Assembly: GCA_963665115.1 (NCBI GenBank)
Contig: OY762007.1
Span: forward strand, 4,096,001-4,160,000
DNA from: an uncultured Rivularia sp.
Lineage (GTDB): Bacteria; Cyanobacteriota; Cyanobacteriia; Cyanobacteriales; Nostocaceae
Direction: 5' to 3'
Length of the DNA: 64,000 bases
The notes beneath the pieces are model-generated. The model was not told where the DNA came from and made no database searches. It worked only from the letters and a program-made list of their open reading frames with translations. This document shows positions 30,250 through 46,595 of the stretch, one piece after another. The translations under genes and the position numbers were made by a program. Every line of letters starts with the position of its first letter. Position 1 is the stretch's first letter.

Positions 30250-30498
30250 TTAAAAATGCCAACATCTTTCCAGCCAATTGATTAATGACTGACGTGATGC
30301 TGTTAATTGAATCACGGTAGAATGAAGCAGAATTGCCGCAATCCAATTATCTATTTGTACTTGCAATGAACCATCCTCTCTACAAGAACAAGGAATATCT
30401 AGCTCTTGTAAGCGATGGTAAATTTGCCAGCGTTGATCGTAGGGAATCTGGACTATTTGATGCAGAACATTAAAACCATGCGGCGGTAACATTATCAA
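30250..30498 (-). CDS. Asr1405/Asl0597-family small nif-associated protein
   Basis: [17 protein letters not shown]...LINWLERCW. Confidence 0.8.
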
Positions 30499-31274
30499 CC
30501 TTCCTTGGTTAAAAGTTCTTTTTCAGGTGCATCAACATTCAGGTTTTGGTTTAAATTTTGCAACCGTGACTCTAGTTGTTCTACCCGTTGCAGCAACGAG
30601 CAAATTACGGTAGCCTCTAAATCTGGAAGCTTTCCATGTTCCAAAGGTGAAAGACTAATATCCTGCCTTCTTGAAATTGGATGACCTGGTATTCCCACAA
30701 CCGTACAGTCTGAAGAAATATCTTGCAAGACAACCGAAGCCGCTCCTACACGAACGCGATCGCCAATTTGAATATTGCCTAAAACCAAAGCACCAGCACC
30801 GACGACAACGTTTTTACCGATAGTCGGATGGCGTTTTCCCAATTCTTTTCCAGTTCCACCGAGAGTAACACCTTGATAAATCAGCGTGTAGTCTCCGACG
30901 ATAGCAGTTTCACCTATGACTACTCCCATACCGTGATCGATAAATACACCTTTGCCAATTTGTGCGCCGGGATGAATTTCAATTCCAGAGAGGAATCGTC
31001 CGAGATGGGAAATCAAGCGGGGAATCAAACCAATTTTGCGATGGTATAACCAATGGGCTAGACGGTGCAAACATAAAGCATGAAATCCGGGATAGCAGAA
31101 TAAAACTTCTAACCAGTTGCGTGCTGCTGGATCTCGCTCAAAAATAATGCGAAAATCATGGCGTAGAAGCTTTATAAAATTTACTTCAGATTGATTTTCG
31201 CCTACAGAGGTGTTTGCACCAGCTGCGTTTTTAGCGAATTGATATTTGCCGAGCTTTTCATCCGATTGTGGCAT
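30495..31274 (-). CDS. cysE: Serine O-acetyltransferase (nifP/cysE)
   Basis: [38 protein letters not shown]. Confidence 0.95.
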
Positions 31275-31384
31275 CGGTAATGTCTAAATTATTTAAGCTA
31301 TGTGCTATTTTCTGCTTATATCAGATGACATTGTTAATGTTAGCTTTCGTAGTCTCGCTTGAATTTATTGAATTTTATTAATTT

Positions 31385-31595
31385 TGTACTCACTAGGCTC
31401 TAACCTTTGCGGTTGTAAGGCTTCAAGATTTATTAAGGGGTATAGGGACTGGTATTTATAGGTAATGGGTTCTAGTATTTATTAGAAGAAGGTACAATTA
31501 TTTTTGTACTCACAGTTAAAGTCTTGAGCAGCAATAGTTTTAAGTATTTTATAGAAAAAATATTTAATTAAAAAGCAACGATAAAAATGTACTCA
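31385..31595 (-). promoter_or_regulatory. Three TGAGTACA motifs upstream of nifP (putative CnfR/PatB sites)
   Basis: TGTACTCA on + at 31385, 31505 and 31588; matches the motif conserved upstream of cyanobacterial nifB/nifP. Confidence 0.65.
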
Positions 31596-31948: not shown

Positions 31949-32932
31949 TCAATTAATATTACGAATCGCAATTTTACCTTTGGCTCTCTCGCTTTCACTA
32001 TATATATGAGCGGCTGCTAATTCTTGTAAAGGATAGGTGCAGTCAATAACCACTCGCAGTTTACCCGCTTCAATCAATTCGTTGAGATAAAGCAAATCGG
32101 CAGTGTTGGGTTGAGCAAGAATGAATTTAGCTTTTTGACTTCCGAATAAACTTGTTAGGGCGTTCAACGCGATAGCGTTGCGGGCTATCGCCACAATATT
32201 TTGCAGATTCGGCAGGGTTGTAATGTAGATGCCATTGGGTTTAAGGACTTTCTTACAGTTATCAAAAGTCTGCTTACCAACTGCATCAAAAACAATATCG
32301 TACTGCACCTGATTTTTAGTAAAGTCATGAGTCGTATAGTCGATGAGAGAATCGGCTCCGAGTGACTTAATAAAGTCTAGGTTTTTACCGCTACAAACTC
32401 CGGTGACTTCTGTCGATAAAGCTTTGGCAATTTGAACTGCAAAAATACCTACTCCACCGGAAGCTCCATTAATAAGTACGCTTTGTGAAGGTTGAATGTT
32501 GGCTTTGTCTCGTAGCGACTGTAAAGCGGTAAGGGCTGCGACGGGTAAAGCTGCTGCTTCTTCAAAGCTGATATTTTTTGATTTAATCGCAGCGACTTTT
32601 TGAGGTACTGCTGCGATTTCGGCATAAGCGCCTCCAGGTACACCAAGTGAGCCATAAATTTCATCTCCCACTTGAAAACCAGTGACTTGAGAACCCACTT
32701 CTAGAACAACTCCAGCCAAATCAAATCCCAGAATCATCGGAAATTTATTCCCACTAATGATTTTGAGCATTCCTTTGCGAATCTTCCAATCAATCGGATT
32801 CACTGCCGCAGCATGAACTTTCACTAACAACTCGTCGGCTTTGATTGTTGGTGCTTCTACTTCTTCATATCGCAAGACATCAGCACTGCCGTATTCTCGG
32901 ATGACTACTGCTTTCATAATCCCACACTCCAC
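31949..32932 (-). CDS. NAD(P)-dependent MDR oxidoreductase (quinone reductase-like)
   Basis: [29 protein letters not shown]. Confidence 0.9.
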
Positions 32933-33300: not shown

Positions 33301-33506
33301 CGAGTACAGTAAAATGGGTTATGTCGAAAATGCCGAAAATGGCTGAGACTCTTTCCAAAACTTGTTTTGAGCCGAGTGCAGCAATACTAGTACCTCGTTA
33401 CATAAATACCAGCCCCCCAGTGAAATAATACTAGTACCCCTACCCGGAAAAAAACTTTTAAAACTTCATAAATCTTTTACAGCAAAGCTTTCAGGATTTG
33501 AGTGCA
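33301..33506 (+). promoter_or_regulatory. Three YGAGTRCA motifs, putative CnfR-dependent nifB promoter
   Basis: CGAGTACA 33301, CGAGTGCA 33373, TGAGTGCA 33499; mirror image of the nifP-side triplet. Confidence 0.55.
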
Positions 33507-33588
33507 AATTTAATAAAACTAATAAACCCAAGCAGACGGGATTTAAAAGTTCGCGAAAAAGCGCCTGATATAACTTAGACATCGCCAA

Positions 33589-36138
33589 ACACCAAACGAG
33601 TCAAATAAACCTTAGACACGGTTGGTGAGTGGAGGGATGAGATATTACTACCTTTACAAAAACCCTATATATCTCGTAAATTGTTTCATACGAACACTTT
33701 GGTTCAACCAATTGTTCATCCAAAACAATACGAAAATTAGTCAACTTTTAGTCAACTAATGCAAGACATACAGGGCAAGGTTTTTAGTGATTTTGATGTT
33801 CCCGCTACTTCTGATGGCAGTTATTGGGGTAGGAAGAAGATAGTAGACGCTACTAAAGAACATCACAATATGAAATTTGAGCAAGAGCTAATAAAAGTTA
33901 ATCAGAGACTCAAATCTAGTAAAGCGAAAGTATCTATTGAGGCAAGCAAAGGGGGAATACAGCTTAGAGCTACACTGCCCCTTAAACCAGATGACACTCA
34001 TAAGCAAGGCAAAGAAACAAAGCAATACAAGATATCTTTGGGTATCCCAGCAAATTTTGATGGTTTAAAGACTGCTGAAGAAGAAGCCTACGAATTAGGA
34101 AAACTAATAGCTCGTAAAACTTTCGTTTGGAGTGAAAAATATTTAGGGCAGCAAGCTAAAAGAAAAAACAGCATTACTTTTAAAGAGTTTTATGAACAGT
34201 TCGAGAAAATATATTTTCAAACTCGCAAAAGGACAATTAGAAGCGAACACAGTTTTCTGGATTATCAAAGAAAATTTAAAAGATATTTTTACTCTAATGA
34301 TGTTGTAACAGCAGAATCTCTGAATCTAAAAATCAAGCAAACGAACACCTTTAACACTAGACGTATTGCAATTATTATTGCTCATTTTATTTGCAAATCG
34401 CTTGAGATCAAAACTGATTTTTCTGACCTGAAAATTAAAAAAGAAGTAAAAAAGAGAGATATACCAGAAGATAAAACAATAGTTAATGCAATCAACTTGA
34501 TTGATTATTATTTAGAACAGATAAAACCGTGCAACAAAGACAAATCATCAAAAGTTTGCCAGCGCAATAAGCTTATTTTTGGATTATTAGCTGTTTATGG
34601 TTTGCGTCCTAGAGAGATATTTAATCAACCCGATCTAGATTGGTTAATGTCATCAGAAAATCAACATAATACTTTTAAAGTTCATGAATCCAATAAAACC
34701 GGATACAGAGAAGTTTTCCCTTTTGTACCTGAATGGCTCGAATTATTCGATCTGAAAAATCAAGAGAATCTCAATTTACTTAAAAAGTATATTTTAGAAG
34801 AGCAAAGCGCGATTGACTTACATTATAAAGTTAGCAAGCTAGGAGATTTTTTTAAATCATATAAACTTTTATTTACGCCATATGACTTGAGGCACGCTTG
34901 CGCCATAAGAGCGCACTTACAAGGAATTCCGATTAAGGCAGCCGCTGACAATCTAGGACACACAGTTGAGATACATACTAAAGTTTATCAGCAATGGTTC
35001 GGACTTGAAAACAGAAGAAAAGCTTTTGATAATGCTTTTGATGAGTCAAGCAAGCTTGAACAATGCGAAAAACAGCTTGCTGAAGCCAGAAAGAGAATAG
35101 CTGAATTAGAAACCGAAGTCACGCGATTAAGCCTGCAAAATAGTATGATTTATAGCTAAATAACCTAGCGAACTACTATGCCTCTCCTCTGAATGCTTCA
35201 AGCATCAACAAAAGATAGCAAGATATACAAACTATTGCAGATATTGTATATTATTTGACAATCATATCTGCATTGAACATTTTCAATATTGCAGACAGAG
35301 TAAAATAAAGGTGCATTTATGACTCGTAATCAAGCAACAAAGCAACAATAGTAAATAATGGTGCAAAATATTAGTTCTACTCTACCAGGCGATCGCCACA
35401 CAGGTTATGTAAGGGTAACAGCAATTTTATTCCTCTCGAATTAATTCTCTTTTCCCTCTTCCTCTGCGTACTAGTAGTTCATTTCATTAGTTTTGATGGG
35501 TACGTAGTTGCGCTTCAGCGCCTCATATTCCGGTATCCGGAGGCGCTGAAGCGCAACTACGAACAATTATTAACCCCTCATAACTTATGTGGCGGAGTAC
35601 TAGTAGTCCTTTGCATTAATTCTGAGGGGTACGTTTTCGACCTAACGTCGGGAGACGTAGCACTGCTACGTCTCTACAACCCATTAAAACAAATGAAAAG
35701 GACTACTAGTAAGGTTTTTTTATCCGCTCATAACCTCGCATAACTTATGTGATGGAATACTAGGCGATCGCCACTTCACTCGCTTATTAATTGATATACA
35801 AGAATAATCAAGGTTCGTAGTAAGGGTTTTAACCATTAATTAGAGGACTAAAGTCCTTACTACGAACCTCTATGAGAGTCAATAGTAAATATTTAGTCAA
35901 CTACTTTTGTAAATCAAATTAGCAATTTAGCTGAAATAGATGAGTTACAAAATAAGCTGATTTAGCCAACTTTCAGTCCATTTTATTAAGCCCAAAAGTG
36001 AAAGCGTTGCTATATAAGACTTTTGACTGCTTGGCTTAGTAATGAGATAGCACCATGCCCTGTAAATAGAAGTCGCGGTGGTCAGAGCTTAATAAAGGTA
36101 ATTCCAGTTATCTCAAGCGTTGATACACACCAGCCGAG
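33589..36138 (+). mobile_element. Putative excision element in the nifB 5' leader (~2,538 bp)
   Basis: Xis-type recombinase 159 bp inside the left end; imperfect direct repeats ACACCAAACGAG (33589-33600) and ACACCAGCCGAG (36127-36138). Confidence 0.6.
33759..35159 (+). CDS. XisA/XisC-type tyrosine site-specific recombinase
   Basis: LGIPANFDGLKTAEEEAYELGKLIARK, YGLRPRE, KTGYREV, PYDLRHACAIRAH, NLGH...Y. Confidence 0.93.
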   Translation: MQDIQGKVFSDFDVPATSDGSYWGRKKIVDATKEHHNMKFEQELIKVNQRLKSSKAKVSIEASKGGIQLRATLPLKPDDTHKQGKETKQYKISLGIPANFDGLKTAEEEAYELGKLIARKTFVWSEKYLGQQAKRKNSITFKEFYEQFEKIYFQTRKRTIRSEHSFLDYQRKFKRYFYSNDVVTAESLNLKIKQTNTFNTRRIAIIIAHFICKSLEIKTDFSDLKIKKEVKKRDIPEDKTIVNAINLIDYYLEQIKPCNKDKSSKVCQRNKLIFGLLAVYGLRPREIFNQPDLDWLMSSENQHNTFKVHESNKTGYREVFPFVPEWLELFDLKNQENLNLLKKYILEEQSAIDLHYKVSKLGDFFKSYKLLFTPYDLRHACAIRAHLQGIPIKAAADNLGHTVEIHTKVYQQWFGLENRRKAFDNAFDESSKLEQCEKQLAEARKRIAELETEVTRLSLQNSMIYS

Positions 36139-36296
36139 AAACCGGAATTTACCTCTCGATTAACTCACGCTCCATAAAGATGGCGAGTTTTTCGACTAAA
36201 GCGTAAACTGCCGCTACTTCGATTCCTGGGTAAAAGCAGAAGCGATGGCATCTCCCACTAGGCAATTTGTCCAGTGACCGACGAACGCGAAACTAA

Positions 36297-37757
36297 ATGA
36301 CATCACCGTCTACTCCAACAGGAATCTTCACCCCTTCCGAAAGCGAATCTACAGCTACACCAGCGAAAGCTAAAAAAGGTGGTTGTGGAACTGGCTGCGA
36401 CGATAATAGCAGCCCTAGCATCGAAATAGATGAGAGAACAAAAGAGCGGATTGCAAAGCACCCTTGTTATAGCGAAGAAGCTCATCATCATTATGCAAGA
36501 ATGCACGTTGCCGTTGCTCCTGCCTGCAACATTCAGTGCAACTACTGCAACCGAAAGTATGACTGTGCGAACGAAAGTCGTCCCGGAGTAGTTAGCGAAC
36601 TACTCTCACCAGAAGAAGCAGCACAAAAAGTTCTGGTAGTTGCAGGTAAGATTCCTCAAATGACAGTGTTAGGAATCGCTGGTCCTGGCGACCCCTTAGC
36701 AAACCCGGAAAAGACCTTCAGCACCTTTGAGAAGATTAATAAAGAAGCACCAGACATTAAATTGTGTCTATCAACCAACGGTTTGATGCTACCGGATTAT
36801 GTAGAACGGATTAAGGAATTAAACGTTGACCATGTAACAATTACAATCAACATGGTCGATCCTGAAATCGGAGCCAAAATCTACCCTTGGGTTCACTATA
36901 AGCGCAAGCGTTACAGAGGAATTGAAGGAGCAAGAATTCTGCATGAAAGACAGATGGAAGGCTTAGAACTTCTTCGCGAAGCAGATATTCTATGCAAAAT
37001 TAACTCTGTATTGATTCCAGGAGTTAACGACCATCATCTTCCCGAAGTAAACAAAGCTGTCCGCGAACGAGGCGCATTTATTCACAATATTATGCCCTTG
37101 ATTAGCGCCCCAGAACACGGTACTCACTTTGGATTGAACGGACAAAGAGGTCCTACTTCTAAAGAATTAAAAGAAGTACAAGACAAATGTTCTGGTAACA
37201 TGAAAATGATGCGTCATTGTCGCCAGTGTCGTGCAGACGCAGTAGGATTATTAGGAGAAGACCGCAGCCAAGAATTTAGCAAAGAAAAATTCATGGAAAT
37301 GACTCCAGAATATAATCTGGAGCAGCGTCAAGAAGTTCATCAAGGCATCGAGAAAAATATACAAGAACTCGAAGCAGCCAAAAAAGGACTTGAAACCTTC
37401 GATTTAGAACTTAGCGGCGAAAAAATGTTGCTAGCAGTAGCAACCAAAGGTGGTGGTATAGTTAACCAACACTTTGGACATGCCAAAGAGTTTCAAATAT
37501 ACGAAGTTGATGGTAGAAAAGTTGAATTCATCGGCCATCGCAAAGTTGACCATTTCTGTCAAGATGGATACGGTGAGGAAGCCACTTTAGAAAATATCAT
37601 AAAAACACTTGCTGATTGTCAAGCAGTATTGGTTTCCAAAATTGGGGATTGTCCCAAAGAAGAACTTCAAAAAGCAGGAATAAAAGCTGTTGAAGCTTAC
37701 GACGTAATTGATAAAGTTGCTCTAGAATTTTACAAAGAAGCAATTAATAATCAGTAA
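36297..37757 (+). CDS. nifB: FeMo-cofactor biosynthesis radical SAM protein NifB
   Basis: [28 protein letters not shown]-terminal NifX-like domain. Confidence 0.98.
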
Positions 37758-37891
37758 AAGTTAATAGTTTTAGATTTTGGATTTATATTCAATCCAAAAT
37801 CTAAAATCCAAAATCCAAAATCCAAAATTCAGAATCATTCATTACCCAGTGCCATTACCTCAATTCAAGAACATAAATAAAGGTAGAAAAA

Positions 37892-38227
37892 ATGGCTTAC
37901 AAAATTACTAACAAATGTATTTCCTGCGATTTGTGTAAAACGATATGTCCCGAGAACGCTATCAAAATAGTTGATCAACGTCCCTGGATTGACCCCGAAC
38001 TTTGTACAAATTGTGTTGATAGTATTTATTCAGTACCCCAATGTAAAGCAGGTTGTCCTACATTTGACGGCTGCGTGGAAATAACATCCGATTATTGGCA
38101 AAACTGGTTTGAAAATTACAAAAATGTAATATCACAAGTCACTAATAAAACAGATTATTGGCAAAACTGGTTCAATATTTATTCGCAAAAATACTCCGAA
38201 CAGTTAGTAGTAGACAGTGAGCAGTGA
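37892..38227 (+). CDS. fdxN: Ferredoxin FdxN (uninterrupted)
   Basis: CISCDLC...CP and CTNC...QC...CP; between nifB and nifS. Confidence 0.9.
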   Translation: MAYKITNKCISCDLCKTICPENAIKIVDQRPWIDPELCTNCVDSIYSVPQCKAGCPTFDGCVEITSDYWQNWFENYKNVISQVTNKTDYWQNWFNIYSQKYSEQLVVDSEQ

Positions 38228-38363
38228 GTGAGGTTAAAGGTTATTCACCTTGTCCCCTTATACCCTTGTCTCCCCATTTCCTTCTCTCCTACTGCCTGGT
38301 TATAAAAAAAACAGTAAAAGAGAAAACCGTTTATTCTGAAGTATTCTTAGAGATATTAAAATT

Positions 38364-39577
38364 ATGCAAAAAAAAGACTGTATTTATTTAGATAATAACG
38401 CTACTACTAAAGTAGATCCGCAAGTTGTAGAGGCAATGTTGCCCTACTTAACCGAAAATTACGGCAATCCTTCCAGTATGCATACCTTTGGAGGAGGAGT
38501 CGGTAAAGCAGTAAAGCAAGCTAGAGAAAATATTGCAGCTTTGCTTGGTGCAGAATCCTCTGAAATTGTCTTTAACAGTGGTGGAACTGAAGGAGATAAC
38601 GCTGCTATTCGGGCTGCACTCCAAGCACAGCCTGACAAAAAACATATTATTACCACCCAGGTAGAACATCCCGCAGTACTTAACCTTTGCAAACAACTGC
38701 AAAAGCAAGGCTACAGAGTTACTTATCTTTCGGTGAATCGTCAGGGGGACAGCTAGATTTACATGAATTGGAAGAAGCACTAACTCACGAAACCGCTTTG
38801 GTAAGCGTTATGTATGCTAATAACGAAACTGGCGTGATATTCCCGGTAGAAGAAGTTGGCAAACTAGCTAAAAAACATGGCGCACTGTTTCATGTTGATG
38901 GAGTCCAGGCTGTAGGGAAAATTCCCCTTAATATGAAAGACAGCACCATTGATATGCTGACGCTCTCAGGCCACAAAATGCATTCACCCAAAGGGATTGG
39001 CGCATTATACGTGCGAAAAGGAGTCAGATTCCGTCCTTTGATAATCGGTGGAGGGCAAGAACGCGGCAGACGTGCGGGAACCGAAAACGTGCCTGCAATC
39101 GTAGCTTTAGGTAAAGCTGCCGAACTCGAACTGCTACATTTAGAAGAAGCAGGAAAAAGACAAAAAAGTTTACGCGATCGCCTAGAACAAGCTATAATAG
39201 AATCAGTTGAAGAATGCGAAATCAATGGTGGCGCAACGCAGAGATTGCCTAACACTACAAATATTGGTTTCAAATATATCGAAGGCGAAGCAATTTTACT
39301 ACTACTCAATCAGCACGGAATCTGTGCATCCAGCGGTTCCGCTTGTAGTTCCGGTTCTTTAGAGCCTTCCCATATTTTACGGTCAATGGGAGTACCCTAT
39401 ACAACTTTGCACGGTTCCATTCGCTTTAGTCTTTCTCGTTACAATACTGAAGCTGATGTTGATGCAGTATTAGCAGTACTACCCGCCATCGTGCGCCGTC
39501 TACGCGAGCTATCACCCTTCAAAAACGATGATGCGGCTTGGCTAAAAGACCAAGAACAAGCTTTAGCTCAACACTAA
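38364..39577 (+). CDS. nifS: Cysteine desulfurase NifS (apparent frameshift at G-run 38744-38748)
   Basis: YLDNNATT, EHPAV, MYANNETG, SGHK, SSGSACSSG over two ORFs; removing 2 G restores NRQGQLDL. Confidence 0.93.
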
Positions 39578-39695
39578 AAGTTAGGAATTAGGAGTTAAGA
39601 GTGAGGAGTTAAAGAATTTATCCTACTCTTCCCAAAACTCCCACCTCCTCACGAAAAATTATTCATAATTCACTACTCATTACGAAAATAAAGCT

Positions 39696-40595
39696 ATGTG
39701 GGACTACACAGATAAAGTATTAGAATTCTTCTACAACCCAAAAAATCAGGGTACTTTAGAAGATAACGGCGAAAATGGAGTTAAAGTTGCTGTTGGGGAA
39801 GTAGGTAGTATCGCCTGCGGAGACGCACTAAGACTGCATATAAAAGTAGACGAAGATACAAACAAAATCCTTGACGCTCGATTTCAAACATTTGGTTGCA
39901 CAAGTGCGATCGCATCTTCCGAAGCTCTGGTAGAATTAGTAAAGGGCAAGACAATAGATGAAGCCCTCAATATTTCTAACAAAGAGATTGCCGAGTTTTT
40001 AGGCGGATTACCTCAAGAAAAAATGCACTGCTCGGTAATGGGGCAAGAAGCCTTAGAAGCAGCAATTTCTAACTATAAAGGTATTCCAATTGTCGCTCAC
40101 GACGAAGATGACGAAGGAGCTATTATCTGTACCTGCTTCGGTATCACCGAGCCTAAAATTCAACGAATTGTAAAAGAAAATAAGCTTACAACCGCAGAAG
40201 AAGTTACGAACTTTATTAAAGCTGGTGGCGGATGTGGAACTTGTTTGGCAACCATTGATGACATCATCATCGAAAACCAAAGAAGTTCTCACTTTACCGC
40301 TCAGGAAACATCCAGCAACGGTAATACAAACGGCAAGATTAGCGAAAAACCGCTAACACCAGTGCAAAAAATAGCACTTATACAAAAAGTATTAGATGAA
40401 GAAGTAAGACCCATTCTAATCGCCGATGGGGGAGACGTAGAACTTTACGATGTAGAAGGCGATAATGTCAGAGTTATGCTTCAAGGCGCTTGCGGTTCAT
40501 GTTCTAGCAGCTTGGCTACTCTCAAAAATGCCATCGAAGCTAAATTAAAAGAACGTATCAGCAATAGTATTACAGTCGAATCAGTTAGCAGTTAG
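39696..40595 (+). CDS. nifU: Fe-S scaffold NifU
   Basis: ACGDAL, FGCTSA, MHCSV, CTCF, GCGTC, GACGSC. Confidence 0.97.
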   Translation: MWDYTDKVLEFFYNPKNQGTLEDNGENGVKVAVGEVGSIACGDALRLHIKVDEDTNKILDARFQTFGCTSAIASSEALVELVKGKTIDEALNISNKEIAEFLGGLPQEKMHCSVMGQEALEAAISNYKGIPIVAHDEDDEGAIICTCFGITEPKIQRIVKENKLTTAEEVTNFIKAGGGCGTCLATIDDIIIENQRSSHFTAQETSSNGNTNGKISEKPLTPVQKIALIQKVLDEEVRPILIADGGDVELYDVEGDNVRVMLQGACGSCSSSLATLKNAIEAKLKERISNSITVESVSS

Positions 40596-40797
40596 TGGTT
40601 AGTAGAAATCTATGAATATCAACTAGCAACTAGCAACTATCAACTAACAACCATCAACTAATTATGAATCTACAGCAAATAGTTGTAGAGCGTGCGCCAC
40701 CCGCGACGTTCTATAAGCAAGTCACCCACCTCATAGGAGTGACAACTAGCAACCACTGCACCCACTCGATAAACCAATTAATTGCAGGAGAAAATAA

Positions 40798-43080
<2,283 letters not shown>

Positions 43081-43156
43081 TAAATCTACTTTTTATAATT
43101 TAAAACTTTCAAAAAAAAATATCTAATTTTAACTATAGGATTAATATTTAGGTATT

Positions 43157-43192
43157 AAAAGACCTGCTTTTATTCACAAAAGCGGGTTTTTT
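43157..43192. terminator. Probable bidirectional intrinsic terminator
   Basis: AAAA-G-ACCTGCTTTT-attcac-AAAAGCGGGT-TTTTT hairpin with A and T tails. Confidence 0.6.
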
Positions 43193-43265
43193 AGTTATTG
43201 TTAATCAATCAAAAATATTTATTTATGATTATTCCGAATTTACAATGTCCAATTCCCAAATTCCT

Positions 43266-44711
43266 TTACTTAGTAAATTTTGATAATAATGTTGTGAGTT
43301 GATTTATTTGTGCTTGCTGTTGCTCAATGATTGCTTTCAATTCATCAACTTGAGAATTATTTTGTTGTGTATTTTCTTTGATACAAGATAACTCTGGATT
43401 AATATCGCTAGCAACCATTGATGCATCGCGGTAATGTTTACGACTTACTTCTTCTGAATGCTCGCACCATGCGTTAACAATATGGGTTTCTCGACCTAAA
43501 TCATATATTTGATGAGAAACAAAAGTATGCCGAGTATTATTAACAGGTAAATATTTTGATACTTTTCCTTGCTCTACTAAATCTTTAACTAATCCTATAT
43601 AATGAACGCCTCTAGAGGTTTTCCCATACCATTTTTCGCTCAAAGTTACTTGATGTATAGGTTTACCATTACCTTTAACTGAAAACACGCAATCATTGTC
43701 TTCTCCTTTTTTTAATTTGCTTAATATTTTCCATAATTTACTATCTCTTTTCATGGGAAAGAATCTTATTGTTTCATTCTTAGTAGGCTTGAATATACGT
43801 GATTTACTATCAAAAGATTTTCTGATAATAATTCTTTCCTCATCAAACCTTATATCTTGCCACCATAAAGCTAAAGCCTCACCATTTCTACATCCAGTTA
43901 AAAATTTAAATGCGATTAATGGATAATATTTACAAAGTTTGGGATGAGTTTTAAAAGCTTCCATAATAATTTCAGCTTCTTCCCAACTAAAAGCTTTCTT
44001 TTTATCTAATAATTCATTATCTTCTGTATTTGATTTATCTTGATTTATTTCTTTTATTCTCTTTTTTGCAATTAAAGTCTCTTTTAATCCTAAAAAAGGA
44101 TTTTTACCGATATAAACATCTTTGGCTATAGCGTAACTGTATGCTCTTTCTAAAGCGCTCACAAGAGATTTTACATCATGAGCGTTACGATTTTTAATTA
44201 ACCAATTAAATATTTGATTTGGGTCATATCCTACTTCTTTGATAGCAGAATTTAAATAATTAAGAAATGCACCTTTATAACTATTGATAAAAGTTGTTTT
44301 AGCTAGTCTATGTTCGGAAAATTCACAATACATTTGCCAAATTTCCAAAATTGAAGGATTGGGTTTTACTGTACCTCCACTTTTATCTTCTGAAGCGATT
44401 CTAACTAATCTGATACGTGCCTTCAATCCGTACTCCTCTAAAACCTGTTGATACCTCTGTTCGTTAAATGCACCGCTGGTATCTACAAGCCATCCTAATT
44501 CCAATTCTTGCTGCAACCTCCGAGCAATTTTCATGGCTAATTCTTCATTATCAGAAATGGCTTCTAAATTAATAGACTTCTTAAATTGCTTTCCTGCAAA
44601 ATACTGTTTAGGAAAAACAACTCTAAATCTACCTTTTAAATTTTCAATAGTGACTTGTTTTATATTCTTTTTACTATTATCTGATTCAAGGTACATATTC
44701 TGTATACTCAA
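43266..44711 (-). CDS. Phage-integrase-type tyrosine recombinase
   Basis: FLTGCRNGEALAL, PTKNE, TRHTFVS, EHSEEVSRKHY; N-terminal arm-binding-like region. Confidence 0.9.
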   Translation of the reverse strand: MSIQNMYLESDNSKKNIKQVTIENLKGRFRVVFPKQYFAGKQFKKSINLEAISDNEELAMKIARRLQQELELGWLVDTSGAFNEQRYQQVLEEYGLKARIRLVRIASEDKSGGTVKPNPSILEIWQMYCEFSEHRLAKTTFINSYKGAFLNYLNSAIKEVGYDPNQIFNWLIKNRNAHDVKSLVSALERAYSYAIAKDVYIGKNPFLGLKETLIAKKRIKEINQDKSNTEDNELLDKKKAFSWEEAEIIMEAFKTHPKLCKYYPLIAFKFLTGCRNGEALALWWQDIRFDEERIIIRKSFDSKSRIFKPTKNETIRFFPMKRDSKLWKILSKLKKGEDNDCVFSVKGNGKPIHQVTLSEKWYGKTSRGVHYIGLVKDLVEQGKVSKYLPVNNTRHTFVSHQIYDLGRETHIVNAWCEHSEEVSRKHYRDASMVASDINPELSCIKENTQQNNSQVDELKAIIEQQQAQINQLTTLLSKFTK

Positions 44712-44758
44712 AACAATTTTAAGTATTGCAAAAGTTGAATTTAAACTAATTGCAATAA

Positions 44759-46595
<1,837 letters not shown>

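Follow-up and report, generated by a model that had tools for sequence, protein, structure and literature searches.

A site-specific recombinase gene that breaks no coding sequence raises the question of what it does where it stands. Such a gene lies ahead of nifB in the DNA analyzed here, a stretch of 64,000 nucleotides of contig OY762007.1 from an uncultured Rivularia sp. (hereafter the window), where the gene order runs nifP, a zinc-dehydrogenase gene, the recombinase open reading frame (ORF) and nifB, followed by fdxN, nifS, nifU and a split nifH. The initial annotation had noted an intact recombinase between nifP and nifB that interrupts no coding gene, and the ORFs at 33759-35159 and 36297-37757 bear this out. 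We find that the gene belongs to an insertion with ATGAGATA ends in the nifB leader. Our favored reading, to which we give a probability of roughly 0.68, is that this 2,405-bp XisA/XisC-type element, lying at an 8-bp repeat before nifB, is excised precisely in heterocysts, which would rejoin the leader under the CnfR promoter.

Ends and recombinase of the leader insertion

When three same-genus loci are aligned to the window, the match ends at 33640-33644 and returns at 36042-36045, and a perfect 8-bp direct repeat, ATGAGATA, occupies 33637-33644 and 36042-36049 with a spacing of 2,405 bp. The octamer is present twice in the window and once in G179, a genome of the same genus, and in other empty alleles; at all 29 relatives' loci examined, a single copy sits within a conserved block. 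The element and its surroundings are as follows.

33637-33644, + strand: left direct repeat ATGAGATA, the recombination core, from the alignment break and repeat search
33645-36049, + strand: the element, 2,405 bp including one repeat copy, absent from G179
33645-33650, + strand: left inner arm TTACTA, predicted recombinase half-site, inverted relative to the right arm and conserved exactly in 8 of 11 elements
33759-35159, + strand: XisA/XisC-type tyrosine recombinase, 466 aa, intact, from PF00589, catalytic residues and dN/dS
35450-35880, no strand: palindromic genome-wide repeats, non-conserved cargo, with 30-270 BLAST hits per position in the genome itself and a fold z of -10.4
35880-36041, + strand: right end shared by several elements; of the 8 other complete ones, 5 are 69-91% identical over ~170 bp
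36037-36042, + strand: right inner arm TAGTAA, exact in 7 of 11 elements
36042-36049, + strand: right direct repeat ATGAGATA; 9 of 11 elements have all 8 bp, the other two 7 bp
36050-36296, + strand: 3' part of the nifB leader (host), collinear with empty alleles and containing ACACCA-NN-CGAG at 36127
36297-37757, + strand: nifB, uninterrupted, the sole full-length match in its own genome

Short inverted arms flanking a 7-bp core are the usual anatomy of a tyrosine-recombinase site. The palindromic repeats at 35450-35880 are missing from most other leader elements.

An excision element in the nifB leader had already been proposed from the sequence of the window; the breaks against relatives and the empty alleles uphold the insertion itself, whereas the ends and size assigned to it do not hold. 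Those ends were two ACACCA-NN-CGAG strings, at 33589 and 36127, whose recombination would remove 2,538 bp. Both strings are present, but neither brackets the element: they sit 137 bp apart in the uninterrupted allele of genome G141 and are therefore host leader. Excision from 33589 to 36127 would delete 133 bp of conserved leader, including the conserved block, and its product equals none of at least 106 empty alleles, so that we give these ends next to no credence. The last upstream motif, said to come to lie 260 bp from the nifB ATG after excision, would lie 393 bp from it with ATGAGATA ends.

The recombinase matches PF00589 weakly in a profile search (E 2.7e-5, below the cut-off) and has no sequence match in PDB. 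It has R283, K313, Y375, R378, H401 and Y410. R283, Y375, R378 and Y410 are invariant across 54 aligned homologues and form the R-Y-R-Y tetrad which, with its His-to-Tyr change, is reported for XisA, XisC and XisG (PMC3610870). The gene is co-directional with nifB. Left repeat and recombinase ATG are 122 bp apart (122-123 bp in each of the 11 known copies), which places the gene near one end. Measured from the end of the repeat, the offset of 114 bp compares with 114-120 bp in three small tyrosine elements of Table B of Hilton et al. 2016 (PMC4874684), a paper that also describes co-directional recombinases as placed where the element begins, and this agreement supports the favored reading. 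The same genome holds about ten paralogues, at nifD, nifK, nifE, hupL, nifH and coxA, whose upstream regions resemble that of the leader recombinase. Further Xis-type elements are found in this genome (G000:C1:4163633-4219347 and 4667098-4668492) in nifD, nifK (two), nifE, hupL and the cytochrome oxidase subunit I gene.

Judged by dN/dS, the leader recombinase is under purifying selection: the ratio is 0.068-0.151 in 28 of 28 pairs of the eight full-length copies, with dS up to 1.7. A further copy (G180) is frameshifted, and two others are cut by contig ends.

The nifB promoter and the divided leader

nifB itself is whole, and the insertion site lies 255 bp before its ATG. What the element divides is, by prediction, the 5' untranslated region (UTR). 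The features on its left side are these.

33301-33308, + strand: CnfR-type motif 1, CGAGTACA, at position -336 relative to the repeat (about -330 to -338 in most empty alleles)
33373-33380, + strand: CnfR-type motif 2, CGAGTGCA, from the motif search and empty-allele comparison
33499-33506, + strand: CnfR-type motif 3, TGAGTGCA, 67 bp before the extended -10
33566-33574, + strand: predicted extended -10 (TGnTATAA type) of the nifB promoter, a conserved pattern
33581, + strand: predicted transcription start (+1), from the -10 spacing
33625-33636, + strand: left half of a conserved 30-bp leader block, from the block comparison

The three YGAGTRCA motifs reported earlier at 33301, 33373 and 33499 are thus present at those positions. 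Motif 3 stands 67-68 bp from the extended -10 in 68 of 72 loci scored, and the pattern TGnTATAA-N7-ATCGCCAA recurs in 105 of 106 empty alleles, among the matches listed, and in 11 of 11 filled genomes. Three TGAGTACA-type motifs 5' of an extended -10 make this a predicted CnfR-type nifB promoter; in published descriptions the nifB1 promoter has three CnfR sites upstream as well as an extended -10 (PMC8510180; bioRxiv 2025.04.01.646610). The supplements of PMC3610870, PMC5580265 and PMC8510180 yielded no nifB start or motif.

The predicted leader measures 2,716 nt before excision and would measure 311 nt after it. Elsewhere the predicted start precedes the first ATG by 322-328 nt at several Nostoc-like loci and by 287 and 302 nt in two records from Nodularia; the values span 205-391 nt overall. 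Mapped nifB leaders are 328 nt in A. variabilis (PMC4284476), 282 nt in PCC 7120 (PMC3141674) and 296 nt in N. spumigena (PMC3610870). Since all of these are longer than the 255-bp stretch from right repeat to ATG, we predict that the entire promoter stands to the left of the element. The CnfR boxes, the -10 and the start would then all stand on the left and nifB on the right, with the 5' UTR split at +57 to +64, 56 nt below the predicted start. The recombinase would be the first ORF under the nifB promoter, its ATG at +179. The initial annotation had a rearrangement assembling both the promoter and the 5' UTR; a divided 5' UTR agrees with our prediction, and a divided promoter does not.

Could the element instead carry an outward promoter of its own that drives nifB and bypasses the CnfR promoter? 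Most elements do have a conserved AT-rich motif, some 35 bp inward of their right end. Against this, the window's element contains no TGnTATAA or YGAGTRYA and none is conserved in the others, while the upstream promoter is fully conserved in all 11 filled genomes; we regard an outward promoter as highly improbable. A sigma-70 scan returned 6 sites where 8.8 are expected.

The insertion falls inside the 30-bp leader block, which is found ungapped and with at most three mismatches in 319 of 362 other Nostocaceae genomes and in 1 of 27 inside the genus, the misses including incomplete genomes and divergent genera. The block (33625-33644 and 36042-36060; loci L051-L169) is nearly invariant across Nostocaceae. 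It has no Rfam family and no covariation support. Nothing in the window reaches an Rfam gathering score, and four empty alleles yield only sub-threshold miRNA noise. Two hairpins are predicted in the leader, the second of which contains the core (z -2.6); because only 1 of 15 consensus pairs covaries, we claim no leader structure.

The neighboring genes on the far side of the promoter complete the interval.

30495-31274, - strand: nifP, from the ORF call
31949-32932, - strand: zinc-dehydrogenase gene, within the nifP-nifB interval

A mirror-image set facing nifP (31323-31595, - strand) consists of three TGAGTACA motifs and a TGATATAA box, and in many relatives the zinc-dehydrogenase gene likewise stands between the nifP and nifB promoters.

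Filled, empty and scarred alleles, and the case for excision

Of 20 relatives compared upstream of nifB, none has the recombinase there. A scan of the genome collection for the right half-site listed at least 119 loci, where about 150 are expected; among the matches listed, 106 are empty, 6 filled and 7 unrelated. The six filled loci are among the 11 filled genomes of the window's genus, where 27 genomes comprise 11 filled at the same base (the window's own and ten relatives), 14 empty and 2 without a match. Of 389 family genomes, 12 have the exact left-junction pattern; they all belong to the genus, 11 being filled and 1 having a scarred empty allele, and 0 of 362 genomes outside it have the pattern. 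Nine of the elements are complete on single contigs, at 1,781-4,529 bp, and two are split by contig ends. Two of the larger ones, L182 (4,529 bp) and L240 (2,801 bp), have cargo ORFs of 157 and 563 aa and a pentapeptide-repeat-like ORF.

The 11 leader recombinases form one clade (100/100), apart from that of the nifB-coding elements, and the nearest named proteins are from Rivularia records. The five sister-clade loci that we read are located within hupS or nifK or immediately ahead of a fragment of nifH. By the rpoB tree the filled genomes fall into four host groups; the element tree does not reject these groups and is compatible with vertical descent. At depth, recombinase dS is uncoupled from rpoB dS, so that some sideways movement or rate variation is likely. 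Three genomes carry both the leader element and a nifB-coding element, which the window lacks. The nifB-coding element (position ~170) is common in the genus (L239, L240, L081, L187, L242, L246). In genome G162 (L302-L308) there are 17 recombinase matches, and L302 (65% identical) directly precedes a nifH fragment. A second match in G172 was set aside as chance.

The cleanest empty allele is that of G179, whose left flank is identical to the window at 341 of 348 positions and whose right flank is identical at 244 of 257. Both the rpoB and the nifB tree place G179 among filled genomes; it has an exact single core and lacks a leader-type recombinase (best match 51%). It may have lost the element precisely and recently, or its site may not have been invaded so far. 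That its empty allele is an artefact of heterocyst DNA is unlikely, since this genome keeps nifH element 1. The remaining empty alleles of the genus are less tidy: 14 of 15 carry small indels (1-4 bp, seven kinds) within the core or adjoining it, although the genomes are kin and hence not independent. That a single octamer shows seven kinds of indel suggests that loss was repeatedly imprecise or that reinsertion was escaped. The core behaves as a recombination hot spot, given that scars mark 14 of 15 empty alleles in the genus, against an ungapped block in 319 of 362 other genomes.

Is the element excised today? The contigs of four runs (X1-X4, from one study, of unspecified growth condition; X4 is a slightly different strain, and the closest-matching runs may come from the window's own source) carry it unbroken across 33644 and 36042. 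No joint of the leader element appears among the matches listed (15 of 34 rows) in these contigs, which drop rare variants. Run X3 does contain the joint of nifH element 1, precise from 41158 to 42995, at a depth of 24.5 against 70.5; related recombinase machinery thus acts in this organism. nifH elements 2 and 3 have no joint in the run contigs, though their removal is also necessary, and junction reads made up 4.1% in a nitrogen-fixing Calothrix culture (PMC11249958), a level that would be lost in contigs. For these reasons, together with the unspecified growth conditions, we take the missing leader-element joint as no evidence either way. The predicted circle junction gave seven matches in metagenome contigs, all with unrelated flanks.

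The three elements that split nifH occupy 41159-42995, 43058-44800 and 45213-46595. The first has the repeat ACTTAGA and an Xis-type recombinase, with about a quarter of its depth excised in X3; the second has the repeat TCCGCGAAGGAAAA and a tyrosine recombinase without similarity to the leader enzyme; the third has a serine recombinase. Extra assembly bases at 38744, 42021 and 45876 are missing in reads (those at 38744 and 42021 in all four runs), so that the apparent frameshifts in nifS and in the recombinase of nifH element 1 are likely assembly errors. From 37801 to 41165, contig depth in X3 and X4 is about 25% higher than over nifB and the DNA upstream.

Under the favored reading, CnfR would activate the nifB promoter late in heterocyst development, and the recombinase would be expressed from that promoter and perhaps also from its own upstream region. 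It would then bind the short inverted arms around the 7-8-bp core, and recombination of the two cores would release a 2.4-kb circle, restore the conserved nifB leader and return the nif operon to the CnfR promoter. The heterocyst timing is suggested by analogy with the nifD, hupL and nifH elements, and by the predicted place of the recombinase as first ORF of the CnfR promoter.

Several results weigh against this reading. No junction or circle of the leader element occurs in any data examined. The window's element has no terminator after the recombinase, a terminator candidate occurs in 1 of 9 complete elements and is not conserved, and the smallest elements add only about 1.8 kb; read-through could therefore make excision unnecessary. 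The strong hairpins in the window's element are genome-wide repeats missing from most other copies. The start at 33581 is a prediction from -10 spacing. One of nine complete copies, that of G180, is frameshifted as assembled. Recombinase dS and rpoB dS are uncorrelated (Spearman 0.06, 28 non-independent pairs), so that the selection on the enzyme may reflect mobility rather than host need. Finally, the scarred empty alleles show that the exact core is dispensable in the genus.

Much of this would be expected if the element were a passenger that is rarely or never excised in development, with one long message running from the recombinase through nifB and the enzyme kept by movement between strains. 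There is no coding frame in need of repair, no conserved terminator stands in the way, the uncoupled dS agrees, and the scarred sites fit escape from reinsertion. Such a passenger would, however, keep an intact recombinase between its own two repeats under a strongly induced heterocyst promoter; its sister-clade enzymes sit in coding genes that require excision; the precise loss in G179, if that is what it is, shows the reaction to be possible; and elements of up to 4.5 kb are retained with cargo. We consider this alternative rather unlikely, though likelier than the other rivals to the favored reading.

Low-rate excision and reinsertion in all cell types, with no link to heterocysts, we hold to be improbable. 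The X3 joint of the nifH element, at 24.5 against 70.5, is far above the 4.1% of Calothrix and may mean vegetative excision for the family, and the genus often loses the element from the germline (of 25 genomes scored, 14 are empty). Yet the three other runs lack the nifH element 1 joint, the leader element persists over dS greater than 1, and the characterized XisA and XisC elements are heterocyst-enriched (PMC4874684; bioRxiv 629832).

If programmed excision does occur, its role is a separate matter. Most likely the element is a selfish insertion, tolerated because it removes itself. A self-timed gate is a possibility we advance tentatively: in vegetative DNA the CnfR promoter would switch on the recombinase, the recombinase would delete its own element, and only the rejoined leader would permit the nifB-to-nifK message. 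Were this true, the rearrangement would gate transcription of all the nitrogenase genes instead of mending a single frame, and the scarred empty sites would be the trace of hosts that repeatedly escaped reinsertion. No reading frame forces excision here, which makes the choice between selfish and regulatory roles testable. A single genus has filled, precisely empty and scarred alleles side by side, and one member of the clade is encoded by a culture-collection strain.

Comparison with known excision systems

That strain is Rivularia sp. PCC 7116, whose protein P0004 (AFY58704.1, 84% identical) falls in the leader clade. Its small tyrosine elements (#7 in hupS at 610, #8 in nifB at 170 and #9 in nifD at 227; 1.7-1.9 kb; Table B of PMC4874684) share with the leader element the recombinase subfamily, minimal size, the 114-120-bp offset and a co-directional recombinase at the beginning. 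They differ in having another core, a separate clade and coding rather than non-coding targets; nifB-coding-type recombinases are 58-60% identical to the leader enzyme. The nine PCC 7116 rows in the accessible part of that table include no leader element.

Hilton et al. (PMC4874684) list 101 elements defined by truncated genes, two of them in nifB (coding positions 170 and 952), along with 44 xis-like genes without a target, and Uesaka et al. 2024 scored coding fragments only. That split-gene surveys would miss an element like this one had been anticipated, rightly given the coding-gene-only method of Hilton et al. Surveys that define an element by a broken coding gene therefore undercount, and some orphan recombinases may belong to leader elements. 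At least one orphan-type xis class targets the non-coding head of a nif operon. Our literature search found no published nifB leader element; subscription papers and bioRxiv supplements lay outside its coverage.

The fdxN element (XisF, Anabaena PCC 7120) and the A. variabilis nifD element are alike in that an unexcised copy can separate downstream nif genes from the nifB promoter. Kumar et al. (2019) reportedly described the fdxN element result as a transcription block. In an A. variabilis xisA mutant, the downstream nif genes were cut off from the nifB promoter (PMC4284476). Those elements measure 11-59 kb, lie in coding sequence and sit downstream of nifB, whereas the leader element measures 2.4 kb, has no evident terminator and stands upstream of all the operon's nif genes. 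The skin (sigK) and SPbeta (spsM) elements of Bacillus are also described as undergoing site-specific excision in a terminally differentiated cell; they differ in using serine recombinases, in their prophage origin and in their coding targets.

The closest parallels are the XisA (nifD), XisC (hupL) and XisG (nifH) elements, which likewise combine an R-Y-R-Y recombinase near one end with short direct repeats at a nif locus. The leader recombinase is 44-45% identical to those of the hupL element and the GGATTACTCCG-bounded nifD-3' element of its own genome. By sequence, the leader element thus has the recombinase, the repeat and the layout of a xis element and lacks the interruption of a coding gene by which xis elements are defined. 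In the XisA, XisC and XisG elements excision restores a reading frame, whereas the leader element lies in a predicted 5' UTR and its excision is proposed; if real, that excision would carry programmed DNA rearrangement beyond coding genes, into a regulatory leader.

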